From: Alkalilimnicola ehrlichii MLHE-1
GTDB lineage: Bacteria > Pseudomonadota > Gammaproteobacteria > Nitrococcales > Halorhodospiraceae
Direction: 5' to 3'
Assembly (NCBI RefSeq): GCF_000014785.1
Contig: NC_008340.1
Coordinates: forward strand, 2,910,001-2,942,000
DNA length: 32,000 bases
Shown here: positions 16,032 through 26,749 of the stretch, in pieces
Numbering within the stretch: the first letter of the stretch is position 1
Layout of the letters: each line of letters begins with the position of its first letter
The notes under the pieces: model-generated
The model's input: the letters and a program-made list of their open reading frames with translations, nothing else
Told to the model about the DNA's origin: nothing
Database searches by the model: none
Position numbers and translations under genes: made by a program

Positions 16032-16109
16032 CCGCGTTAACCTGCGGTGTTCTGCCGCAGGGGCGCCCTGCCGGTGTCCCGGCCCCTCCACAGCACACCG
16101 CGGGTAGCC

Positions 16110-19100
16110 ATGAACAGTCTTGACCAACACCTGGAAAGCGCCGGCCTCACCTTCGCCCGACTCCAGACCCCGGCGGGTCTGGCCGAGCTGGACCGCCGAT
16201 TCCTGGACTGGCTGCGCGAGCGCGACGGCGAGCTGTGCGAACGGCTGCTCGCCCACCGTGACCGGCAGCCGGCCACCACCCCCGACTACAGCCGGCTGCT
16301 GCTGGCCGTGGCGCCCCACCTGGAGCAGTGGCTGGCGGGGCTGTTCGGCATCACCGAGGCGCTGACCCGCCGCCGGGCCACGCTCGTCGCCGACGATGTG
16401 ATCATCGACTTCCGCCGCGAGTTCGTGCAGAAACGCGCACGCAGGGCCCGTCCGGAGGCTGACTTCACCACCCTCGACGAGGCGCTCCGCGAGGCCCTCC
16501 GCCAGGCCCGCCTGCCCACCGAGCAGGACGAGGAACTGGCGGTGGCCCGCTACGGCCTCAACCTGCTGGGTGACGAGGCAGGCCACGCCGAGGCCATCCG
16601 TGGCCTCGCCGAGTGGTGCGCCCGCGCCCTGGAGACCCCGGAGGGGCGTGCGCGGGTGGCCGGCTGGACCGCCTTCCGCCTGCCGCGCAAGGTGGACCAC
16701 GCCCGCCTGGTGCCGCTGCGCCGGGCCGACCTGCCCGGTGCCGCCCGGCTGGCGGCCGCCACAGAACACCACCGCAGCCGCGACGGTTTCAGCCTCACCG
16801 ACCCGCGCATGTCCGCCCGCGATGTGCACGCCGAGACGCACTACTGCGTGCTCTGCCACGAGCACGCCGGCGACTTCTGCTCCCGCGGTTTCCCGGAGAA
16901 GAAGAAGCAACCGGAACTGGGCTACCGGGTGGACCCGCTGGGCAACACCCTCACCGGCTGCCCGCTGGAGGAGAAGATCAGCGAGATGCACGCCCTGCGC
17001 CGGGAGGGGCGAGTGATCGCCGCCCTGGCCATGATCATGGTGGACAACCCCATGGTCCCGGCCACCGGCCACCGGATCTGCAACGACTGCATGAAGGCAT
17101 GCATCTACCAGAAGCAGGATCCGGTGAACATCCCCCAGGCCGAGACCGGGGTGCTCACCGAGGTGCTGGACCTGCCCTGGGGGGTCGAACTCTACCACCT
17201 GCTGGCCCGCTGGAACCCGCTGCGTCCCCAGCAGTACCTGGAGCAGCCCCACAACGGCCGCCGGGTGCTGGTGGCCGGGATGGGCCCGGCCGGTTTCACC
17301 ATGGCCCACCACCTCACCATGGCCGGCTGCAAGGTGGTCGGCATCGATGGGCTCAAGGTCGAGCCCCTGCCCGAGGACATCCTCCGCGGCCCGGTGCGCG
17401 ACTGGGACCAGTTGGCCGAGGACCTGGACGAGCGCACCCTGCTCGGCTTCGGCGGGGTGGCCGAGTACGGCATCACGGTGCGCTGGGACAAGAACTTCCT
17501 CAAGCTCATCTACCTCACCCTGGCCCGGCGCCAGACCTTCAGCGTCCACGGCGGCGTGCGCCTGGGCGGCACCCTCACCCTGGAGGACGCCTGGGAACAG
17601 GGCTTTGACCACGTCTGCGTCGCCACCGGCGCCGGCTACCCGCGGGTCATCCCCATGGGCAACTCGCTCGCCCGCGGCATGCGCCAGGCCAACGACTTCC
17701 TGATGGCCCTGCAACTCACCGGCGCCGGCAAGATGAGCTCCATCGCCAACCTCCAGGTACGCCTGCCGGCGGTGGTCATCGGTGGCGGGCTCACCGGCGT
17801 GGACACCGCCACCGAGGTGCAGGCCTACTACATCCGCCAAGTGGAAAAGGTGCTCTGGCGCTACGAGACCCTGGTGGCCGAACGCGGCGAGGCGCGCGTG
17901 CGCGACCGGTTGAACGACGAGGATCAGGCCATCCTGGATGAGTTCCTGGCCCACGGCCGAGCGGCCCGCGATGAGCGCGCGAAGGCCGCCGCCGAGGGCC
18001 GGGAACCCGACTTTATCCCGCTGATCCAGAAGTGGGGCGGGGTGACCATCGCCTACCGCAAGGGCATGAACGCCTCGCCCGCCTACACCCGCAACCACGA
18101 GGAGTTGCGGGCGGCCACCGAGGAGGGGCTCTACTACGCCGAGGGCCTGGACCCCATCCACGCCCGGCTGGACGAGCACCACCACATCCGCAGCCTGGTT
18201 TGCCGACAGATGAAGCACGATGCCGGCCGCTGGTTCACTACCAGCCACGAGGTGGAACTGCCCGCCCGCTCGGTCTTCGTGGCCGCCGGCACCGTACCCA
18301 ACACCATCTACGAACACGAGCACCCGGGCAGCCTGGAGCTGGAGGGCAACCACTACCGGCCCCACGCCTTTCACAACGAGGGCCTGCAACCGGTGCAGAC
18401 CGCCGAGCACGTCAAGTCGCCGGAGGCGGGTCCCTTCACCGGCTACCGCCATCAGGGGCGCACGGTCACCTTCCTGGGCGACACCCACCCGGTCTACCAG
18501 GGCAGCGTGGTGAGGGCCATCGCCTCGGCCCACGACAGCTGGCCGGAGGTGATGAAGGCCCTGGACAGCCTGCCGGCTCGGGTGCCCAACCCGGACCCCC
18601 ACGCCTTCCAGCGCCGTGTCGCCGACCTGCTGAGCGCGGAGGTGGTCTCGGTGAACCGGGACAACCCGGCGGTCACCGAGATCTGGGTGCGCGCCCCGGC
18701 TGCCGCCCGGCGTTTCCGCCCCGGGCAATTCTTCCGGCTGCAGACCTACGAGAGCCACTCCCCGCTGGTGGCCGGCACCCGGCTCCAGGTCCCGCTGCTC
18801 ACCGTCTCGGGCACCGGCATCGACGGCGACTGCATCCGCCTGATGGTCTTCCAGTGGGGGGCCGGCCCGCGCATCGCCGGCCGGCTCCGGCCCGGTGACC
18901 CGGTGGTACTGATGGGCCCCACCGGTGCCCCCACCGATATCCCCAGCGGCGAGACGGTGCTGGTGGTGGCCGGGCGCTGGGGCGCGGCGGTGATGCACGA
19001 CATCGGCTCAGCCCTGCGCGCCGCCGGCAACCGGGTGCTCTACCTGGCCGCCTTCGGCTCGCCCCGCGATGTGGACCACCAGGGGGAGCTGGAGGCCGGT

Positions 19101-19604
19101 GCCGACCAGATCATCTGGTGCACCGCCGGTGAGGCGCTGATTGAGGCCCGCCGCCCGGGGGACTGCGCGGTGCAGGCCACCGACATGCTGGATGTGCTGC
19201 GCCGGTACGCCGACGGCGAGATCCGCCCGGTCGAGGGCCGCGGCCTGCCGCTCTCCTCGGTGGACCGCATCCTGGTAATGGGCGGCACCGGGCTGCTCAA
19301 GGGCTTCCAGGCCGCCCTGGGTGACCACCTGGGCGGCCGCCTCGCCCCCGGGGTCCAGGCCCACGGCACCGTGGGCAGCCCGATGCAGTGCATGCTCAAG
19401 GGCGTCTGTGCCCAGTGCCTGCAGTGGCAGCTCGACCCGGAAACCGGCAAACGCACCCGCCCGGTCTTCTCCTGCGCCGAACAGGACCAGCCCCTGGCCT
19501 GGATCGACCTGGACAACCTGGCCGCCCGCCAGCAGCAGAACCGCCTGCTGGACCAGCTCACCGGCCAATGGGTGGACCACGTGCTGGCCCGAGCTGACGA
19601 CTGA
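16110..19604 (+). CDS. Large fused iron-sulfur flavoprotein (~1164 aa): unassigned N-terminal domain (~245 aa), GltD/NfnB-like module (2x[4Fe-4S] plus FAD/NAD(P)H), and PyrK/NfnA-like ferredoxin-reductase module (FAD/NAD plus C-terminal [2Fe-2S])
   Basis: Cys motifs at about 16845-17100: HYCVLCHEHAGDFC, GCPLEEKISEMHAL, ATGHRICNDCMKACIY. These parallel the GltD/NfnB motifs C..C....C, GCPL.N.IPEW and TG.VCP..CE..C. Dinucleotide folds: VLVAGMGPAGFTMA (about 17263) and AVVIGGGLTGVDTATE. The C-terminal third has FRPGQFFRLQ (about 18715), PVVLMGPTGAP and a Cys cluster CMLKGVCAQCLQW...FSCAEQ (about 19387-19480), as in PyrK/NfnA. The start is uncertain: ATG 16110 was chosen, and GTG 16047 is possible. 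Confidence 0.8.
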   Translation: MNSLDQHLESAGLTFARLQTPAGLAELDRRFLDWLRERDGELCERLLAHRDRQPATTPDYSRLLLAVAPHLEQWLAGLFGITEALTRRRATLVADDVIIDFRREFVQKRARRARPEADFTTLDEALREALRQARLPTEQDEELAVARYGLNLLGDEAGHAEAIRGLAEWCARALETPEGRARVAGWTAFRLPRKVDHARLVPLRRADLPGAARLAAATEHHRSRDGFSLTDPRMSARDVHAETHYCVLCHEHAGDFCSRGFPEKKKQPELGYRVDPLGNTLTGCPLEEKISEMHALRREGRVIAALAMIMVDNPMVPATGHRICNDCMKACIYQKQDPVNIPQAETGVLTEVLDLPWGVELYHLLARWNPLRPQQYLEQPHNGRRVLVAGMGPAGFTMAHHLTMAGCKVVGIDGLKVEPLPEDILRGPVRDWDQLAEDLDERTLLGFGGVAEYGITVRWDKNFLKLIYLTLARRQTFSVHGGVRLGGTLTLEDAWEQGFDHVCVATGAGYPRVIPMGNSLARGMRQANDFLMALQLTGAGKMSSIANLQVRLPAVVIGGGLTGVDTATEVQAYYIRQVEKVLWRYETLVAERGEARVRDRLNDEDQAILDEFLAHGRAARDERAKAAAEGREPDFIPLIQKWGGVTIAYRKGMNASPAYTRNHEELRAATEEGLYYAEGLDPIHARLDEHHHIRSLVCRQMKHDAGRWFTTSHEVELPARSVFVAAGTVPNTIYEHEHPGSLELEGNHYRPHAFHNEGLQPVQTAEHVKSPEAGPFTGYRHQGRTVTFLGDTHPVYQGSVVRAIASAHDSWPEVMKALDSLPARVPNPDPHAFQRRVADLLSAEVVSVNRDNPAVTEIWVRAPAAARRFRPGQFFRLQTYESHSPLVAGTRLQVPLLTVSGTGIDGDCIRLMVFQWGAGPRIAGRLRPGDPVVLMGPTGAPTDIPSGETVLVVAGRWGAAVMHDIGSALRAAGNRVLYLAAFGSPRDVDHQGELEAGADQIIWCTAGEALIEARRPGDCAVQATDMLDVLRRYADGEIRPVEGRGLPLSSVDRILVMGGTGLLKGFQAALGDHLGGRLAPGVQAHGTVGSPMQCMLKGVCAQCLQWQLDPETGKRTRPVFSCAEQDQPLAWIDLDNLAARQQQNRLLDQLTGQWVDHVLARADD

Positions 19605-19919: not shown

Positions 19920-20117
19920 ATGAACCTGAAACAGAACATGGGCACCGTGGACCGTGCCCTCCGCGCCATCGTCGGCGTCATCCTGCTGGCGCTGGTCTTC
20001 GTCGGTCCGCAGACCCCTTGGGGCCTGATCGGTATCATCCCGCTGGCCACCGCCGCCATCGGCTGGTGCCCCGTCTACCTGCCCCTGGGCCTCAGCACCT
20101 GCGGCAAGAAGACCTGA
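19920..20117 (+). CDS. Small DUF2892 (YgaP-C-terminal-like) two-TM membrane protein
   Basis: MNLKQNMGTVDRALRAIVGVILLALVF...GLIGIIPLATAAIGWCPVYLPLGLSTC. The motif N.G..DR..R...G.......... GL.G..PL.T...G.CP.Y...G..T is the DUF2892 signature. Good SD (GGAGG). Confidence 0.75.
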   Translation: MNLKQNMGTVDRALRAIVGVILLALVFVGPQTPWGLIGIIPLATAAIGWCPVYLPLGLSTCGKKT

Positions 20118-20210: not shown

Positions 20211-20654
20211 TCACCAGCGTTTGTAGGGCAGGAACTTCCCGTTCAGGGTGAGCACCACCCGATCGCCCTTCGGGTCCTCGACCTTGTCCACCTCCATGGT
20301 GAAGTCGATGGCACTCATGATGCCGTCACCGAACTTCTCCTGGATCACCTGCTTCAGGGTCTCGCCGTAGACCATCACCACCTCGTTCAGACGATAGACC
20401 AGCGGGTCGGAGAGCATCTCTTGGTAGCGCTGGCCCTTCTCCGGGTAGACCTGCAACGCCGCCCCCACCTCACCGGGCAGCCCCAGCACGCCGCAGAGCT
20501 TTTCGGCCGGATCGGCCAGCAGGCTGTTCTCTCCCAGGCAGGCGGAACAGATGAAGACCGGCGACAGGCCCGTGGCCTCCCCGATGGCCTCCCAGCTCAT
20601 GCCTTTGAACTGCTTGGCGGCCAGGATCGCTTCACGCATTTCTGCCTTGTTCAT
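20211..20654 (-). CDS. cynS: Cyanase (cyanate hydratase)
   Basis: ORF 20211..20678 trimmed to ATG 20654 (SD GAGGA 8 nt upstream), giving 147 aa, the same size as cyanobacterial CynS. The C-terminal catalytic half is nearly invariant: DPLVYRLNEVVMVYGETLKQVIQEKFGDGIMSAIDFTMEVDKVEDPKGDRVVLTLNGKFLPYKRW. Confidence 0.93.
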   Translation of the reverse strand: MNKAEMREAILAAKQFKGMSWEAIGEATGLSPVFICSACLGENSLLADPAEKLCGVLGLPGEVGAALQVYPEKGQRYQEMLSDPLVYRLNEVVMVYGETLKQVIQEKFGDGIMSAIDFTMEVDKVEDPKGDRVVLTLNGKFLPYKRW

Positions 20655-20718
20655 GGTTGTCATCCTCTTGAAGGTCAAAGGTTAGGGCACACGGCTACGC
20701 CGCGCTCAAGGTAGTACT

Positions 20719-20736
20719 CACCTGCCGTGGCAGGTG
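20719..20736 (-). other. Hairpin immediately after the cynD stop (CACCTGCC-ac-GGCAGGTG on the minus strand)
   Basis: Perfect 8+8 inverted repeat seen in the 86-nt cynD-cynS spacer. No U-run follows. A possible mRNA-stability or processing element. Confidence 0.3.
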
Positions 20737-20740
20737 CGGT

Positions 20741-21613
20741 TCAGCCATTCACAACCCGCTTTCCGGGCTCCGGTTCCTCGCCGACATTGACCTCGGCCGC
20801 CTTGCGGGTGCCGCTCTGCCCCTGCAGTTCCCGGGAGCGCCGGACCAGGAAGTCGACCAAGTGGTTGCGGGTCGGGTAGTAGTTGGGGTGCTCGATGATG
20901 GAGGTCCGGTCCCGCGGCCGGGGGATATCCACCTTCACCGCCTCGGCCACGTGGGCCTCCGGGCCGTTGGTCATCAGCAGGATGCGGTCGGAGAGCAGGA
21001 TGGCCTCGTCCACGTCGTGGGTGATCATGAACACCGTCTGCCCGGAGTCGCTCCAGATCCGCAGCAACTCGTCCTGGATGGTGCCCCGGGTCAGGGCGTC
21101 CAGGGCGCCGAAGGGCTCGTCCATGAGCAGCAGCTTGGGTTCGATGGCGAAGGCGCGGGCGATACCCACCCGCTGGCGCATGCCGCCGGAAAGCTCCGCC
21201 GGGCGCCGGGTCTCACTGCCCTCCAGCCCCACGAGCCGGATGTACTTCATGGCGTGCTCACGCACCTGCTGACGGCTCCAGCCCGGCCAGCGGGCCTGGG
21301 TGGCAAACACCACGTTGGCCAGGGCGCTCTTCCAGGGCAGCAGGCTGTGGTTCTGGAAGATCACCCCCCGGTCCAGGCTCGGGCCCTTCACTTCCTTGCC
21401 GTCCATGAAGACGTTGCCGTCGGTGGCCTCGTCCAGGCCCGCCAGCACGTTCAGGATGGTGGACTTGCCGCAGCCGGAGTGGCCGATGACACAGATGAAC
21501 TCGCCCTTCTCGATGTTGAAGTCCACCCCGTCAAAGACGGTAAGCGGGTCCCCGCCGCGGGCAGCGGGGAAGGTCTTCTTGAGGCTTTCCACCTCGAGGA
21601 ATGCATGACTCAT
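20741..21613 (-). CDS. cynD: ABC transporter ATP-binding protein of the nitrate/cyanate/bicarbonate (NrtD/CynD/SsuB) family
   Basis: ORF trimmed to ATG 21613 (SD GGGAGAG). Walker A GHSGCGKST, Q-loop, signature LSGGMRQR, Walker B LLLMDEPFGALD and H-loop ITHD. The gene symbol is assigned from operon context with cynS, not from substrate evidence. Confidence 0.88.
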   Translation of the reverse strand: MSHAFLEVESLKKTFPAARGGDPLTVFDGVDFNIEKGEFICVIGHSGCGKSTILNVLAGLDEATDGNVFMDGKEVKGPSLDRGVIFQNHSLLPWKSALANVVFATQARWPGWSRQQVREHAMKYIRLVGLEGSETRRPAELSGGMRQRVGIARAFAIEPKLLLMDEPFGALDALTRGTIQDELLRIWSDSGQTVFMITHDVDEAILLSDRILLMTNGPEAHVAEAVKVDIPRPRDRTSIIEHPNYYPTRNHLVDFLVRRSRELQGQSGTRKAAEVNVGEEPEPGKRVVNG

Positions 21614-21631
21614 AGGGTCTCTCCCGGGGCA

Positions 21632-21654
21632 GCCCCCGGCGCTCGGCCGGGGGC
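21632..21654 (-). other. GC-rich hairpin in the 96-nt cynB-cynD spacer (GCCCCCGG-7 nt-CCGGGGGC)
   Basis: Perfect 8-bp inverted repeat read from the sequence, ending about 18 nt before the cynD SD. Function unknown. Confidence 0.3.
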
Positions 21655-21709
21655 GCATTGCCCACAGTGACGTTGTACGCGGATGCCTGAATTCAGTGAA
21701 TGCACGGGC

Positions 21710-22549
21710 TCATTCGGCGTACTGCACGGCCCGGGTGGCCATGGCCAGCATGCTGTCCAGGATCATGCCGACGATCCCGATCATGAGCACCGCGAAGATC
21801 ACGCTGGTCAGATCCAGGTTGTTCCACTGGTTCCAGACGAAGTAGCCGACGCCGGTTCCACCGACGAGCATCTCGGCGGCCACGATGACCAGCCAGGAGA
21901 TCCCGATGGCAATGCGCATGCCGGTGAGGATGGTGGGTGCGGCGGCCGGCAGGATCACCGAGAAGGCGGTTTTCACCGGCGAGAGCTGCAGCGTGCGCGC
22001 CACGTTCAGCAGGTCCTTCTTGACCCCCGCCACCCCGAAGGCGGTATTCACCAGGATGGGCCAGACGGAACAGATGAAGATGACGAAGATCGCCGACTGC
22101 ACCGAGTCCTGGATGATGTAGAGCGCCAGGGGCATCCAGGCCAGCGGCGAGATGGGCCGCAGCACCTGGATGTAGGGGTTAAGCGCCTTCTGCATCACCG
22201 GCGACATGCCCACCACGAAGCCCAGCGGGATGGCCACCAGCACCGCCAGCCCGTAGCCGGCCAGCACCCGGCCTATGGAGTGGGCCAGTTGGGTGCCGAT
22301 GCCCTTGTCGTTGCTGCCCCGGTCGTAGAAGGGGTCAGAGAGCTCCGTCACCGCCAGGCTCAACACCTCCGACGGCGCCGGGATGTTGCTGCTGGAAGCG
22401 CTGCCCGCGCCGGTGAGCATTTCGTACTCGCTGAGCTCCTCCTGCCCGGGAACCAGGGTGCCACCCACGCTCCACTCCCAGATGCCCAATATCACCACGA
22501 GCATGGCGAGGCTGAGGACGACGGCCTTGAGGTTCTCGCGACTCAACAT
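21710..22549 (-). CDS. cynB: ABC transporter permease of the NrtB/CynB family
   Basis: 279-aa, 6-7 TM protein. Family EAA loop: NVARTLQLSPVKTAFSVILPAAAPTILTGMRIAIGISW. ATG 22549 lies 3 nt after the cynA stop, with GGAGG inside the cynA 3' end. Confidence 0.88.
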   Translation of the reverse strand: MLSRENLKAVVLSLAMLVVILGIWEWSVGGTLVPGQEELSEYEMLTGAGSASSSNIPAPSEVLSLAVTELSDPFYDRGSNDKGIGTQLAHSIGRVLAGYGLAVLVAIPLGFVVGMSPVMQKALNPYIQVLRPISPLAWMPLALYIIQDSVQSAIFVIFICSVWPILVNTAFGVAGVKKDLLNVARTLQLSPVKTAFSVILPAAAPTILTGMRIAIGISWLVIVAAEMLVGGTGVGYFVWNQWNNLDLTSVIFAVLMIGIVGMILDSMLAMATRAVQYAE

Positions 22550-22552
22550 GGC

Positions 22553-23980
22553 TTACGACCTCCGTATCTCGAAGCTGTCCACGTAGGCCTCCGGCTGCTC
22601 AGGGTCGAACGCCTTGCCCATGATCATGTGGCTCTTGTAGGTGACCTCCGGCGGCTCGTAGCCCAGCTCGCGCATGAGTTTGCCGCAGTCGGTGGCCAGG
22701 TAGACCTCTTCGGCGATGCCCTTGTAGTCCACGTCGCCGTCCACGTAACCCCAGCGCTTCATCTGGGTCATGATCCACACCGCCATGGAGTGCCAGGGGA
22801 AGGGGTCGAAGTCGATCCGGTCCGGGTCCTCCTTGACGTTGCCCAGCCCGTCGGCGTAGCGGCCAGTCAGCACCTGCTGAATCACCGATACCGGCTGGTT
22901 CAGGTAGTTGCGCGGGGCGATGGCCTCGGAGATCTCGGCCCGGTTCTCGTGCTCGGAGGCATAGTGGGTGGCGTCCACGATGGCCTTGAACAGGGCACCG
23001 AAGCTGTTCGGGTACTCCTCGGCAAAGGCGCGGCTGGTGGCGAAGGCGCAGCAGGGGTGGCCGTCCCAGATCTCCTTGGTGAGCAGGTGGATGAAACCCA
23101 CCTCCTCCCAGACCGCCCGCTGGTTGAAGGGGTCGGGGGCCAGGTAGCCGTCCACGTTGCCGGCGCGCAGGTTGGCCACCATCTCCGGCGGCGGCAGCAC
23201 GCGAATCTGGATATCCCGGTCCGGGTCCAGGCCGTGCTCGGCGACGTAGTAGCGCAGCAGGAAGTTGTGCATGGAGAAGTCGAAGGGCACGGCGAAGCGG
23301 AAGCCCTTCCACTGGCTGGGGTCGCGCTTGTCCTTGTGCTTGTTGTGCAGGGTGATGGCCTGGCCGTTGATGTTCTCCACCGCCGGCATGATGAAGGGCA
23401 TGCTCGACGAGCCGGTGCCCATGGTCATGGCCAGGGGCATGGGGGTGAGCATGTGGGAGGCGTCGTACTCCCGGTTCATGGACATATCCCGGGCCACCGC
23501 CCAGCCGGCGGTGGAGCGCAGGTCCACGTTCAGCCCGTAGCGCTCGTAGAAGCCCATGGGGTGGGCCATGATGATGGGCGTGGCGCAGGTGATGGGCACA
23601 AAGCCCACGGTCAGGTCGCGCTTCTCGGGGTCACCCAGGTTGTCCTTGAGCATGGCCTTGGCCGCATCCAGCGGGAATATGGAGCCCACCGCCGCAGCAA
23701 AGGTGCCGGCGCCCACCGCCTTCAGGAAGAAACGCCGGCTGGCGTCGTGGTGACCGAACAGGGCACGCACCACCGCGCTCTCCACGGCCCGGTCGAACAT
23801 GGCCTCTTTGTCGACGCCCTGCTTCGCGGCCAGCATCTGGTTGGCGTCCTGCTCCGCTGGGGCGGCCCCGTGGTCGTGCTGGGCATGTTCGCCGCCACCG
23901 CAGCTGGAGCAGGTGCAGCCCGCTCCGTGGCGCAGGTCCGCCTCCGGGTTGAACGGGTCGTTGAGTGATCGGTTGCTCAT
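22553..23980 (-). CDS. cynA: NrtA/CmpA/CynA-family periplasmic substrate-binding protein with a twin-arginine signal and an unusual 80-aa Cys/His-rich N-terminal extension
   Basis: Tat motif SRRFFLKAVGAGTFAAAVG at residues 81-99. Mature-domain blocks typical of NrtA-like proteins: LTVGFVPITCATPIIMA, GW.V.RD, GQAIT, FAVPF..SMHN.LLRYY.AEHGLDPD.DIQ....PP.EMVANL..GN.DG.L.PDPFNQRAV, HPCC.FA. The start at 23980 is backed by a strong SD (GGGAGG, 8 nt) directly after the leader terminator. Confidence 0.88.
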   Translation of the reverse strand: MSNRSLNDPFNPEADLRHGAGCTCSSCGGGEHAQHDHGAAPAEQDANQMLAAKQGVDKEAMFDRAVESAVVRALFGHHDASRRFFLKAVGAGTFAAAVGSIFPLDAAKAMLKDNLGDPEKRDLTVGFVPITCATPIIMAHPMGFYERYGLNVDLRSTAGWAVARDMSMNREYDASHMLTPMPLAMTMGTGSSSMPFIMPAVENINGQAITLHNKHKDKRDPSQWKGFRFAVPFDFSMHNFLLRYYVAEHGLDPDRDIQIRVLPPPEMVANLRAGNVDGYLAPDPFNQRAVWEEVGFIHLLTKEIWDGHPCCAFATSRAFAEEYPNSFGALFKAIVDATHYASEHENRAEISEAIAPRNYLNQPVSVIQQVLTGRYADGLGNVKEDPDRIDFDPFPWHSMAVWIMTQMKRWGYVDGDVDYKGIAEEVYLATDCGKLMRELGYEPPEVTYKSHMIMGKAFDPEQPEAYVDSFEIRRS

Positions 23981-24003
23981 GGTGCTTACCTCCCGCCAAT
24001 AAC

Positions 24004-24048
24004 AAAAAAGGGCGCGGCATCGGCCGGTAGCCGACGCCAGACGCCCTT
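24004..24048 (-). terminator. Strong intrinsic terminator inside the cynA 5' leader (the regulated attenuator)
   Basis: Minus strand: AAGGGCG-tct-GGCGTCGGC-taccg-GCCGATGCC-g-CGCCCTT-TTTT. The two helices of 7 bp and 9 bp (one G-U pair) are followed by a run of six T. It ends about 20 nt before the cynA SD/ATG. Confidence 0.8.
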
Positions 24049-24094
24049 GCCTGGAAAGCCTGTTTCAGTGCCTGCCACCACCCGCCGTTGGGTG
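24037..24094 (-). promoter_or_regulatory. ANTAR-type RNA target: two hairpins with A-x-x-G hexaloops, the second overlapping the terminator 5' arm (antiterminator)
   Basis: Minus strand hairpin 1, 24094..24079: CACCC-AACGGC-GGGTG. Hairpin 2, 24054..24037: CCAGGC-AAGGGC-GTCTGG (one G-U pair). Both loops are 6 nt, with A at position 1 and G at position 4. The linker is 24 nt. The loop and 3' arm of hairpin 2 (AAGGGCGTCTGG) are the same nucleotides as the terminator 5' arm. Confidence 0.75.
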
Positions 24095-24135
24095 TCGCGC
24101 TGCGACGGACAGGGCACTGATGTCAGTGATGTATA

Positions 24136-24151
24136 TTCAATTCGCGTGCCA
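24136..24151 (-). promoter_or_regulatory. Sigma-54 (-24/-12)-like promoter for the cyn operon (TGGCAC-GCGAA-TTGAA)
   Basis: On the minus strand there is a perfect -24 element TGGCAC(G) and correct 5-nt spacing to TTG. The -12 reads TTGA instead of the consensus TTGC. It lies about 40 nt upstream of ANTAR hairpin 1. Confidence 0.45.
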
Positions 24152-24215
24152 GATTTGGCTTTTACCGTTGAAACAACGTGTTACGAAATAGCTTGACACC
24201 CCGTGGCGGGGCAAC

Positions 24216-24232
24216 TGCACGGCATCGGTGCG
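24216..24232. promoter_or_regulatory. Possible NtrC-type enhancer half-site pair (GCAC-N7-GTGC)
   Basis: CGCACCGATGCCGTGCA (minus strand) has the spacing of the NtrC consensus TGCACCA-N3-TGGTGCA and matches about 10 of 14 specified positions by hand. It is about 70-80 bp upstream of the sigma-54-like promoter, just after the nasT-like stop. Weak evidence. Confidence 0.25.
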
Positions 24233-24250
24233 GGCATGCACTGCCGCGGG

Positions 24251-24832
24251 TCAACCGTGGGCCAGGCCCGCGTCGACGAGCAGCCTGCGCGCCAGACGCG
24301 GAATAGGCTGCCCGCAGTTCATGGCGCGGCGGCGCAGCAGGTGGTAGGCATCGGCCTCGCCCAGCCCCTCGCGCTCCATCAGCAGGCACTTGGCCTGGTG
24401 CACATCACGCTGCTCGGCAAGCTGGCGGCGAGTGTCCGCCAGCTCGCGGGTCAACCCCTGAAAGCGCTCGTACTGCCGGATGGCCAGGCGGATCGCCCCT
24501 TGCACCCCTTCGCGCGGCACGCCCCCCACGGCGTAGGCACTGAGCCCCGCCGCCGCGGCTGTGCTCATCAATTCCGGGTCGTGATGAACGGAGCCGTTCA
24601 TCACCGGCCCCGGGTACCGCCCCCCGCGGCTGCACAGCCCCTCCAGGGTGTCGCGTTTGCCCGATCCCGCTTCGGTGATGATCACCTCCGGCTCCTCGTC
24701 GAGCACCCGCTGGTAAAGGTCATCCGCGCCCTGCACGGTGGCCACCACGGTAAAGCCCGCCACCTGCAGTGACTCCTCGAGCCAGGCCGAACGCTCCGGC
24801 GAATCATCGACCAGCATGACTTTGGTGACCAT
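24251..24832 (-). CDS. nasT: NasT/AmiR-type two-domain regulator: receiver-like domain plus ANTAR RNA-binding antiterminator domain
   Basis: ATG 24832 (SD GGAG 6 nt upstream) was preferred over the track's TTG at 24838. The N-terminus VMLVDDSPER...EVIITEAGSGKRDTLEGL is receiver-like. The C-terminus LTRELADTRRQLAEQRDVHQAKCLLMEREGLGEADAYHLLRRRAMNCGQPIPRLARRLL is the ANTAR helix bundle (AKG.LM......E..AY..LR..AM). Confidence 0.88.
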   Translation of the reverse strand: MVTKVMLVDDSPERSAWLEESLQVAGFTVVATVQGADDLYQRVLDEEPEVIITEAGSGKRDTLEGLCSRGGRYPGPVMNGSVHHDPELMSTAAAAGLSAYAVGGVPREGVQGAIRLAIRQYERFQGLTRELADTRRQLAEQRDVHQAKCLLMEREGLGEADAYHLLRRRAMNCGQPIPRLARRLLVDAGLAHG

Positions 24833-24881
24833 GAGCAACTCCAGGGGCTGAGCCCGTCAGCAATGATGCAGCGCAAAATAA

Positions 24882-24897
24882 TACAAGGTGCGTGCCA
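24882..24897 (-). promoter_or_regulatory. Second sigma-54-like element (TGGCAC-GCACC-TTGTA) upstream of the nasT-like gene
   Basis: Same TGGCACGC -24 box and spacing as the element at 24136..24151. The -12 reads TTGT. It is about 50 nt upstream of ATG 24832. Pattern match only. Confidence 0.3.
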
Positions 24898-25156
24898 CTG
24901 CCCGGGCCTGGCGGTAAAACAGGGAGTTGCATGAATCCGGCGAGGGTCGACGGCGCGTGTCGCGCACGCCGGTGGTGCGCACACTGTTGTCGGGGTCTCA
25001 GTGGCGCACCAAAGTGGACGGTGCGGCAATAGGAATCGTCACCGGGGGGCGGCATAAAGAGTCATCCCGCGGTAACATAAACGGATACACCGCCCGATCA
25101 TGAATACGACTCTAAATGGGCAGCCCGACACCCCCCAAAAAACGAGGAGCTTGCAC

Positions 25157-26749
<1,593 letters not shown>

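Follow-up and report, generated by a model that had tools for sequence, protein, structure and literature searches.

Cyanate is a widespread nitrogen source, and to our knowledge only three types of regulator have been described for its use, namely, CynR, NtcA, and CynF. The CynF type is represented by the cynFABDS genes of Pseudomonas pseudoalcaligenes CECT5344, where cynABDS is transcribed as one unit behind a sigma-54 box; cyanate induces this transcript and ammonium represses it (PMC6627978). ANTAR targets have been described as two hexaloop hairpins whose loops have A as the first and G as the fourth base (A1/G4), with the second hairpin competing with a terminator (PMC3369931, PMC8934654, PMC10783516). 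In this study, we analyzed a window of 32,000 nucleotides (nt) from Alkalilimnicola ehrlichii MLHE-1, a haloalkaliphilic, soda-lake member of the Ectothiorhodospiraceae, in which a gene for a NasT-like ANTAR regulator and a leader with two such hexaloops precede a cynABDS operon for cyanate uptake and breakdown; all positions without a contig name are those of this window. Cyanate is relatively stable at high pH, as in soda lakes (PMC5744179).

The best overall explanation is that this operon is probably doubly gated, by NtrC/sigma-54 initiation and by NasT-like antitermination, with the amount of the regulator as the main input. An earlier note on this DNA had read from it a cynA-B-D-S gene order, an ANTAR-type leader, a NasT-like regulator gene that appears monocistronic and lies between pckA and the cyn leader, sigma-54-like boxes at both promoters, and an NtrC-like site upstream of the operon. 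Profile searches bore out the gene content and order, the leader could be defined precisely and is conserved in relatives, and the remaining features were likewise found. The comparative search for nasT-like genes beside cynABDS that the note had proposed recovered the regulator-leader-cynABDS module in at least nine diverged lineages of haloalkaliphilic Ectothiorhodospiraceae and relatives.

The cyn leader and the NasT-like regulator

Five co-directional genes occupy positions 20211 to 24897 of the minus strand: the regulator gene (24251 to 24832), cynA, cynB, cynD, and cynS. A 270-nt leader, which includes the cynA ribosome binding site (RBS), separates the regulator gene from cynA. In the direction of transcription, and thus on the minus strand, the first structure in the leader is a three-way junction (24065 to 24120), in which stem P0 (24107 to 24120, paired with 24065 to 24079) encloses the hairpins Pa (24094 to 24106) and Pb (ACCC-AACGGC-GGGU; 24080 to 24093); the loop of Pb, AACGGC (24084 to 24089), is an A1/G4 hexaloop. 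The junction is followed by hairpin P2 (CCAGGC-AAGGGC-GUCUGG; 24037 to 24054), which carries the second A1/G4 hexaloop (24043 to 24048), and by an intrinsic terminator (24004 to 24047) consisting of an interrupted stem of about 19 bp (24010 to 24047) and a U6 tract (24004 to 24009). The cynA RBS, GGGAGG (23989 to 23994), was read from the sequence. A pair of six-base A1/G4 loops is the defining signature of an ANTAR target.

The loop and the 3' arm of P2 are part of the 5' arm of the terminator (24029 to 24047), so that the two structures are mutually exclusive and P2 would serve as the antiterminator element. Since the terminator sits between the only promoter-like box of the operon and the cynA RBS, 23 nt before the latter, expression of the cyn operon must read through it. 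P2 alone folds with -7.6 kcal/mol, against -31.4 kcal/mol for the terminator; read-through should therefore need a protein that holds P2.

To assess conservation, 12 homologous leaders from about nine diverged lineages, taken from metagenomic and genomic contigs, were each folded independently. The three-way junction was the minimum-free-energy fold in 11 of the 12, a terminator was present in all 12, and a P2-equivalent hexaloop hairpin overlapping the terminator 5' arm was found in 11. The elements recovered by RNAalifold were Pa and Pb, both of which show compensatory changes, and the terminator. Because MAFFT placed the P0 arms in different registers in different lineages, P0 was judged by per-leader folding and a duplex-versus-shuffle test rather than by alignment columns; in 8 of 10 lineages, the complementarity of its arms reached z <= -2.9, though the 5' arms are only 34% identical. 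The GGC-AAGGGC-GUC block is conserved, while the remainder of the terminator stem varies freely. Wherever the hairpins are defined, G4 is invariant in both hexaloops and A1 is invariant except for one G, the variants being AACGGC, AAUGGC, AAAGAC, AAUGAC, AACGCC, AAUGCC, and ACUGUC for the first loop and AAGGGC, AGGGGU, AACGGC, AAAGGC, and GAAGGC for the second. The junction and both hexaloops keep their positions in lineages whose regulators are only 40 to 50% identical. Judged by this conservation, the leader is biologically real and has the anatomy of a genuine ANTAR target, and with its three-way junction it is a candidate for a new RNA family.

The regulator (193 amino acids [aa]) comprises a pseudo-receiver domain, a linker helix, and an ANTAR domain (PF03861 at residues 135 to 187; E = 7.3e-15). 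Its residues 6 to 189 align over the full length with the REC-ANTAR proteins Rv1626 and EutV, and the ANTAR domain aligns with those of Rv1626, EutV, AmiR, and NasR. The protein itself scored below Pfam significance for PF00072; homologues at 50 to 54% identity do match this family. The regulator family is small, with an identical copy in a second complete genome of 3.19 Mb. Identity to the NasT proteins of nasT-nasS clusters in Salinisphaera, Arhodomonas, and Halofilum is about 40%, and the closest relatives outside the module are such NasT proteins, encoded ahead of a signal-less NasS and then narK-nasA-nirA; in the nas clusters inspected, nasS always follows nasT immediately. In a neighbor-joining tree, the cyn-linked regulators fell into three groups that were interleaved with nas-linked NasT and did not form a single clean clade.

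At the acceptor Asp position, the A. ehrlichii group has Glu, the other cyn-linked groups have Ala, Ser, or Asp, and the NasS-partnered relatives have Gly or Asp. The regulator sequence is consistent with a NasT-like pseudo-receiver and not with a phosphorylated response regulator. Among ANTAR regulators, a phosphorylatable receiver Asp characterizes the EutV type and neither NasT nor AmiR. We considered the Glu as a special feature of the A. ehrlichii regulator and dropped the idea: the argument is weak because NasS-partnered relatives lack the Asp as well, its loss being a family trait of NasT relatives.

Several related loci deserve mention in their own right. The Salinisphaera nas clusters (contigs L019, 10558 to 10960; L022; and L025) have nasT, a sigma-54 box, two hexaloops (AACGAU and AACGAA), a terminator, and nasS, in that order; since the leader with its terminator lies between nasT and nasS, synthesis of NasS itself appears to depend there on antitermination by NasT. 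The nasT and nasS genes of Arhodomonas and Halofilum are directly adjacent and have no intervening leader. On contig L011 (10001 to 16039), a distant REC-ANTAR gene (28% identical) lies directly upstream of nirA-narK-nasA with no NasS-like gene, which suggests that partner-less NasT-like regulators may extend beyond cyn operons. An uncultured Salinisphaerales genome carries two tandem REC-ANTAR paralogues (L042, 9084 to 10552).

Putative promoters, structural genes, and distribution of the module

The pattern TGGCAC-N5-TTG occurs exactly twice in the window, both times on the minus strand (0.27 expected; two or more in 5 of 100 shuffles). One sigma-54-type box, TGGCACGCGAATTG(A) (24138 to 24151), precedes the cyn leader; the second, TGGCACGCACCTTG(T) (24884 to 24897), precedes the regulator gene. 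In both, the -24 element and the spacing match TGGCAC-N5-TTGC perfectly; the -12 element reads TTGA at cyn and TTGT at the regulator gene. The 10 relatives scanned have the same box 54 to 63 nt upstream of Pb, mostly with the canonical TTGC at -12. Furthermore, most of the relatives examined have a GGCAC-N5-TTGC box at the equivalent place before the regulator gene, which for several of them was read by eye and not matched by regular expression; the box was absent at the Salinisphaera orenii locus on contig L037.

A GCAC-N7-GTGC core lies about 70 to 80 nt upstream of both sigma-54 boxes, the reference for NtrC-type sites being TGCACC-N5-GGTGCA. The NtrC-like palindrome GCACCGATGCCGTGC (24217 to 24231) is located about 70 nt upstream of the cyn box, and a second, GCACCACCGGCGTGC (24964 to 24978), is located upstream of the regulator promoter. 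The count of this core in the window (3 found, 1.9 expected) is not significant by itself; in relatives, exact or one-mismatch NtrC-like sites occur at the orthologous promoters, and exact sites are enriched there roughly 10- to 17-fold over the background of the loci (0.13 exact sites per kb).

The four structural genes are all on the minus strand. cynA (22553 to 23980) encodes a binding protein (Pfam NMT1_2, E = 1.7e-90) with the twin-arginine translocation (Tat) motif SRRFFLK; cynB (21710 to 22549) encodes an ATP-binding cassette (ABC) permease (BPD_transp_1; nitrate-type equivalog TIGR01183, 228.8 bits against a cutoff of 209); cynD (20741 to 21613) encodes an ABC ATPase of 290 aa (nitrate-type TIGR01184, 310.5 bits against a cutoff of 291.8); and cynS (20211 to 20654), the last gene of the operon, encodes a cyanase of 147 aa (TIGR00673 equivalog, 156.9 bits against a cutoff of 113.3; NF002773 above its cutoff; both Pfam cyanase domains). 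NrtA/NrtB/NrtD-like importer genes thus precede cynS in the order A-B-D. The mechanical reading frame of cynS reaches a TTG at 20678 and that of cynD reaches 21658; the lengths given here are those called in identical or near-identical contigs (L001 and L107 for cynD). When the window was searched by tblastn with the cyn proteins and three nas proteins, no second NMT1_2/NrtA-like gene was found in its 32 kb, and the narK, nasA, and nirA queries gave no match, in agreement with the earlier reading of an operon without nitrate or nitrite reductase genes. There is no Sigma54_activat (CynF-type) gene at the locus, whose upstream side is taken by the ANTAR gene and pckA (25100 to 26749, plus strand), which is divergent from the regulator gene.

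CynA is 100% identical to an A. ehrlichii MLHE-1 protein; the other 119 of the best 120 matches, from 8,000 scored proteins of a very large family, are 65 to 89% identical. It is related to NrtA (2G29), CmpA, and the C-terminal domain of NrtC. At every locus inspected for this orthologue group, the cynA gene is linked with cynS, in no case with nasA or nirA, and the CynA proteins of CynF-type operons are 69 to 70% identical to that of the window, compared with 36% for the NrtA of a nas-type transporter (L036) and about 31% for NasS. Because it carries a canonical Tat signal, CynA is, by prediction, periplasmic. The family also shares a conserved extension of 70 to 100 aa before the Tat motif (about 80 aa in the window, 23740 to 23980; also in P0080, P0061, P0039, and P0118), with the pattern SL(G/N)(D/N)PF.P..DL.HG.GC.C..C, then EA(I/M).DR.(I/V)ESA(V/I)VR..F, and then SRR.F.K; n-regions of signal peptides are not usually so conserved, and the conserved residues here include a Cys motif. 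The extension and the Tat signal were considered as adaptations to the ANTAR system, and this was rejected because the CynA proteins of CynF-type loci carry both equally.

The module was found in soda-lake and hypersaline metagenomes, in metagenome-assembled genomes of Ectothiorhodospiraceae, in Aquisalimonas, and on one further metagenome contig. Its flanks differ by locus and include pckA, EamA with sox genes, and CrcB, among others. Three other loci inspected, in Tenderia, Thalassospira, and Thiohalophilus, have cynABDS together with a divergent PAS/sigma-54 activator that has a Fis-type helix-turn-helix. The leader was inspected at the CynF-type locus of Tenderia, where neither a junction nor a terminator was found, and the upstream palindromes of the CynF-type loci differ from the NtrC-like sites of the ANTAR-type loci. 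On this comparison, the structural operon of A. ehrlichii is an ordinary proteobacterial cyn operon, and the unusual part is its regulator; we favor the view that a NasT paralogue and its leader replaced the CynF-type activator that the other three proteobacterial cyn operons in our comparison have.

Other features of these loci were recorded. In Candidatus Tenderia electrophaga, palindromes of the ACGAAG(C/T)TTCGT type recur in the cynF-cynA intergenic region (L102, 6700 to 6780), upstream of the sigma-54 box of cynA; these are candidate CynF sites and are absent from the ANTAR-type loci. S. orenii MK-B5 (L037, 9953 to 13862; L038) has a NasT-like regulator, a leader with a terminator, a CynA-like protein (68% identical), a cyanase, and a channel of the formate/nitrite-transporter family (FNT), with no permease or ATPase gene (cynB or cynD) at the locus; its genome also has a classical nasT-nasS-narK-nasA-nirA cluster (L030/L033). 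Just downstream of the A. ehrlichii cyn operon, on the plus strand (16047 to 19604), lies a gene for a protein of 1,185 aa with a glutamate-synthase-beta-like Pyr_redox_2 region and a ferredoxin-reductase-like C terminus (NF005128, partial match; RP005_N in a near-identical contig), which is adjacent to the cyn operon in the closest relatives only. Between this gene and cynS, a 65-aa YgaP-like transmembrane reading frame (about 19920 to 20117, plus strand; coordinates inferred from L107, 14716 to 14913) is called in identical and near-identical contigs and is absent at more distant cyn loci.

Proposed mechanism and alternative explanations

Since sigma-54-type promoters with NtrC-type palindromes upstream are found at each unit, both the operon and the regulator gene are predicted, from sequence and conservation, to be switched on at nitrogen limitation. 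Transcripts from the cyn promoter would then meet the strong intrinsic terminator before the cynA RBS. It can be envisioned that, as the leader is being transcribed, the regulator recognizes its two A1/G4 hexaloops, the one of Pb being displayed on the three-way junction, and that binding of the regulator holds P2, blocks formation of the terminator, and gives read-through. The anatomy of the leader is seen directly; binding and read-through are proposed by analogy with NasT/NalA, NasR, and EutV.

Within any of the at least nine lineages, no NasS- or AmiC-like gene was found within about 10 kb of the regulator gene, whatever its flanks. The earlier statement that there is no NasS partner therefore stands for the neighborhood of the gene in all of these lineages; the certainty with which the absence of NasS had been claimed was overstated. 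In Azotobacter vinelandii, nasS mutants are reportedly constitutive, so that NasT would be active without NasS. Because of this, because no nearby NasS was found in any lineage, and, as a weak further argument, because of the Glu at the acceptor position in the A. ehrlichii group, we propose with modest confidence, as the simplest model, an intrinsically active regulator, the level of which its own NtrC/sigma-54 promoter would set. The NtrC-set amount of regulator would then be the main input of a coherent feed-forward loop, which would keep the operon tightly off until nitrogen starvation persists, and cyanate-specific modulation, if there is any, would come from a further partner or ligand.

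A number of points weigh against this explanation. The -12 elements in A. ehrlichii are TTGA and TTGT, not TTGC; P2 has only 3 bp in some relatives; and no P2 hairpin was found in the S. orenii leader. The hexaloops are about 35 nt apart, with a large junction between them, which is wider than the classical dual-hexaloop motif, and the distance of about 25 nt from the Pb stem to the P2 stem (P0 3' arm plus linker) exceeds the short linker of that motif. No Rfam match at gathering level was found in the window, and a permissive scan of positions 23800 to 25200 gave chance-level matches only. We infer RNA binding, read-through, and dependence on RpoN and NtrC, and the idea of a sensor-less, intrinsically active regulator is an argument purely from absence of evidence. 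The NasT protein of Pseudomonas putida also binds cyclic di-GMP, so direct ligands are possible. Lastly, the P. pseudoalcaligenes operon is specifically induced by cyanate (PMC6627978), and a specific signal would thus be useful in A. ehrlichii too.

The last point leads to the rival that survives best, in which antitermination works as proposed and a distal sensor, a signal-less NasS-like protein or another partner, blocks the regulator until cyanate, nitrate, or nitrite is present. NasS is the partner of every characterized NasT protein (PMC10783516), NasT proteins with such a partner share about 40% identity with the regulator, cyanate-specific induction has its example in the CynF-type system, and our inspection of the A. 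ehrlichii genome covered 32 kb. However, nas clusters always pair nasT and nasS directly, in contrast to the empty 10-kb neighborhoods described above, and a homology search with the Arhodomonas NasS returned no A. ehrlichii-named protein among its best 120 matches, which is weak evidence. On balance, we consider a distal sensor unlikely, though a real possibility. Less likely again is that a NasS-less, NasT-type antiterminator receives a cyanate or nitrogen signal by a route that is new for ANTAR proteins, such as the CynA precursor or a direct ligand on the Glu pseudo-receiver, with the leader as a new class of ANTAR target.

A different proposal concerns the cargo: the transporter could be a nitrate/nitrite importer belonging to a nitrate/nitrite regulon, with cyanase as a passenger. 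Cyanobacterial CynABD also transports nitrite, and the A. ehrlichii permease and ATPase pass the NCBIfam nitrate-transporter models. In P. pseudoalcaligenes, moreover, the specificities of cyanate and nitrate/nitrite transporters overlap (PMC6627978). We nevertheless regard this proposal as very unlikely, given the constant linkage of the CynA orthologue group to cynS at the loci examined, its distance from the nas-type NrtA and from NasS, and the lack of a reductase gene in the window.

It is similarly improbable that CynA doubles as the sensor, its cytoplasmic precursor binding the regulator and releasing it upon binding cyanate. Tat export means that CynA folds in the cytoplasm first, where the precursor could meet the regulator; CynA, with its perfect Tat motif, is 31% identical to NasS and holds the gene slot in the cyn module that NasS holds in Salinisphaera (nasT, leader, nasS); and the S. 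orenii module, which retains a CynA-like protein next to CynS and an FNT channel in the absence of cynB and cynD, is a small hint in the same direction. Yet the Tat signal and the N-terminal extension are shared equally with CynF-type CynA, and we know of no precedent for such a dual role. Finally, although no Rfam family matched and the mechanism is proposed here from sequence alone, there is hardly any chance that the leader hairpin is a mere terminator of the regulator gene, with coincidental hexaloops and a regulator that acts on other targets, since it lies downstream of a conserved sigma-54 box and just before the cynA RBS, with no other promoter-like site for the operon, and since the junction and hexaloops are conserved in position, with covariation, across lineages with widely diverged regulators.

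Comparison with known systems

Doubly gated control by NtrC/sigma-54 and antitermination, which probably describes the A. ehrlichii operon best, had been put forward in the earlier note as a new wiring of a cyanobacterial-type operon. The label is misleading, since proteobacteria ordinarily have cynABDS with a CynA of this family (P. pseudoalcaligenes [PMC6627978], Tenderia, Thalassospira, and Thiohalophilus), and two-tier control is already established for nas operons (PMC10783516). In addition, sigma-54 promoters at nasT and at cyanase genes have been predicted in bulk (PMC12316311). What remains new is the application to cyanate: our literature search, which covered ANTAR or NasT together with cyanate or cyanase and the supplements of the 2012 survey of ANTAR targets by Ramesh et al., found no prior description of ANTAR control of cyanate genes, and the literature searched on nitrogen assimilation in A. 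ehrlichii contained no statement about nas genes. Because the two-tier scheme is textbook knowledge for nas operons and such promoters had been predicted before, the wiring is a new combination of known parts. The presumably ANTAR-controlled cyn operon is a real and apparently undescribed but not a radical rewiring, the logic of nas operons having apparently been moved onto a standard proteobacterial cyn operon. As such, the locus would add a fourth, RNA-level solution to the known regulators of cyanate use and extend ANTAR antitermination to cyanate assimilation. It also appears to be a natural regulator swap, in which some lineages run one structural operon with a DNA-binding activator and others run it with an antiterminator and leader, and, with a NasT-type regulator apparently lacking its usual sensor, it offers a compact system for studying the control of partner-less ANTAR proteins.

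The enterobacterial cynTSX/CynR system shares with this locus a cyanase that serves in detoxification or assimilation of cyanate; unlike A. ehrlichii, it has the major facilitator superfamily transporter CynX, a carbonic anhydrase, and CynR, a cyanate-sensing, DNA-binding regulator of the LysR type, none of which is encoded at the A. ehrlichii locus. The AmiC-AmiR system at the amidase operon of Pseudomonas aeruginosa and NasR of Klebsiella nasF likewise use ANTAR antitermination to carry transcription of an operon for a nitrogen source past a terminator in its leader. However, AmiR depends on cytoplasmic AmiC, and in NasR the sensor is a fused NIT domain; neither type of sensor is present at the A. 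ehrlichii locus. Cyanobacterial cynABDS, as in Synechococcus elongatus PCC 7942, has the same A-B-D-S order of genes for an NrtA/B/D-like importer and a cyanase. Repression by ammonium through the general nitrogen regulator is a further shared property, although for A. ehrlichii it is predicted; in cyanobacteria, transcription is NtcA dependent and uses sigma-70, with neither sigma-54 nor antitermination known to take part.

The closest match in mechanism is NasS-NasT, as found at A. vinelandii nasAB, at nirBD of P. putida (NalA), and in Paracoccus and Bradyrhizobium. The regulator likewise consists of a pseudo-receiver and an ANTAR domain, the promoter appears to be of the NtrC/sigma-54 type, and the leader carries a pair of A1/G4 hexaloops, of which the second competes with an intrinsic terminator, a layout also seen in the Salinisphaera nas clusters. 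In contrast to those systems, the targets in A. ehrlichii are a cyanate transporter and cyanase, with no reductase and no adjacent NasS, and the first hexaloop is placed on a three-way junction, well separated from the second. In its structural genes, the locus is instead matched by cynFABDS of P. pseudoalcaligenes CECT5344 (PMC6627978) and the operons of Tenderia, Thalassospira, and Thiohalophilus, which have orthologous genes in the same order, a sigma-54-type promoter before cynA, and a function in nitrogen scavenging. Those loci differ in having a divergent PAS/sigma-54 enhancer-binding protein with its own palindromes and no leader terminator; A. ehrlichii lacks CynF and has instead an ANTAR gene that is co-directional with the operon, together with a leader terminator and NtrC-like sites.

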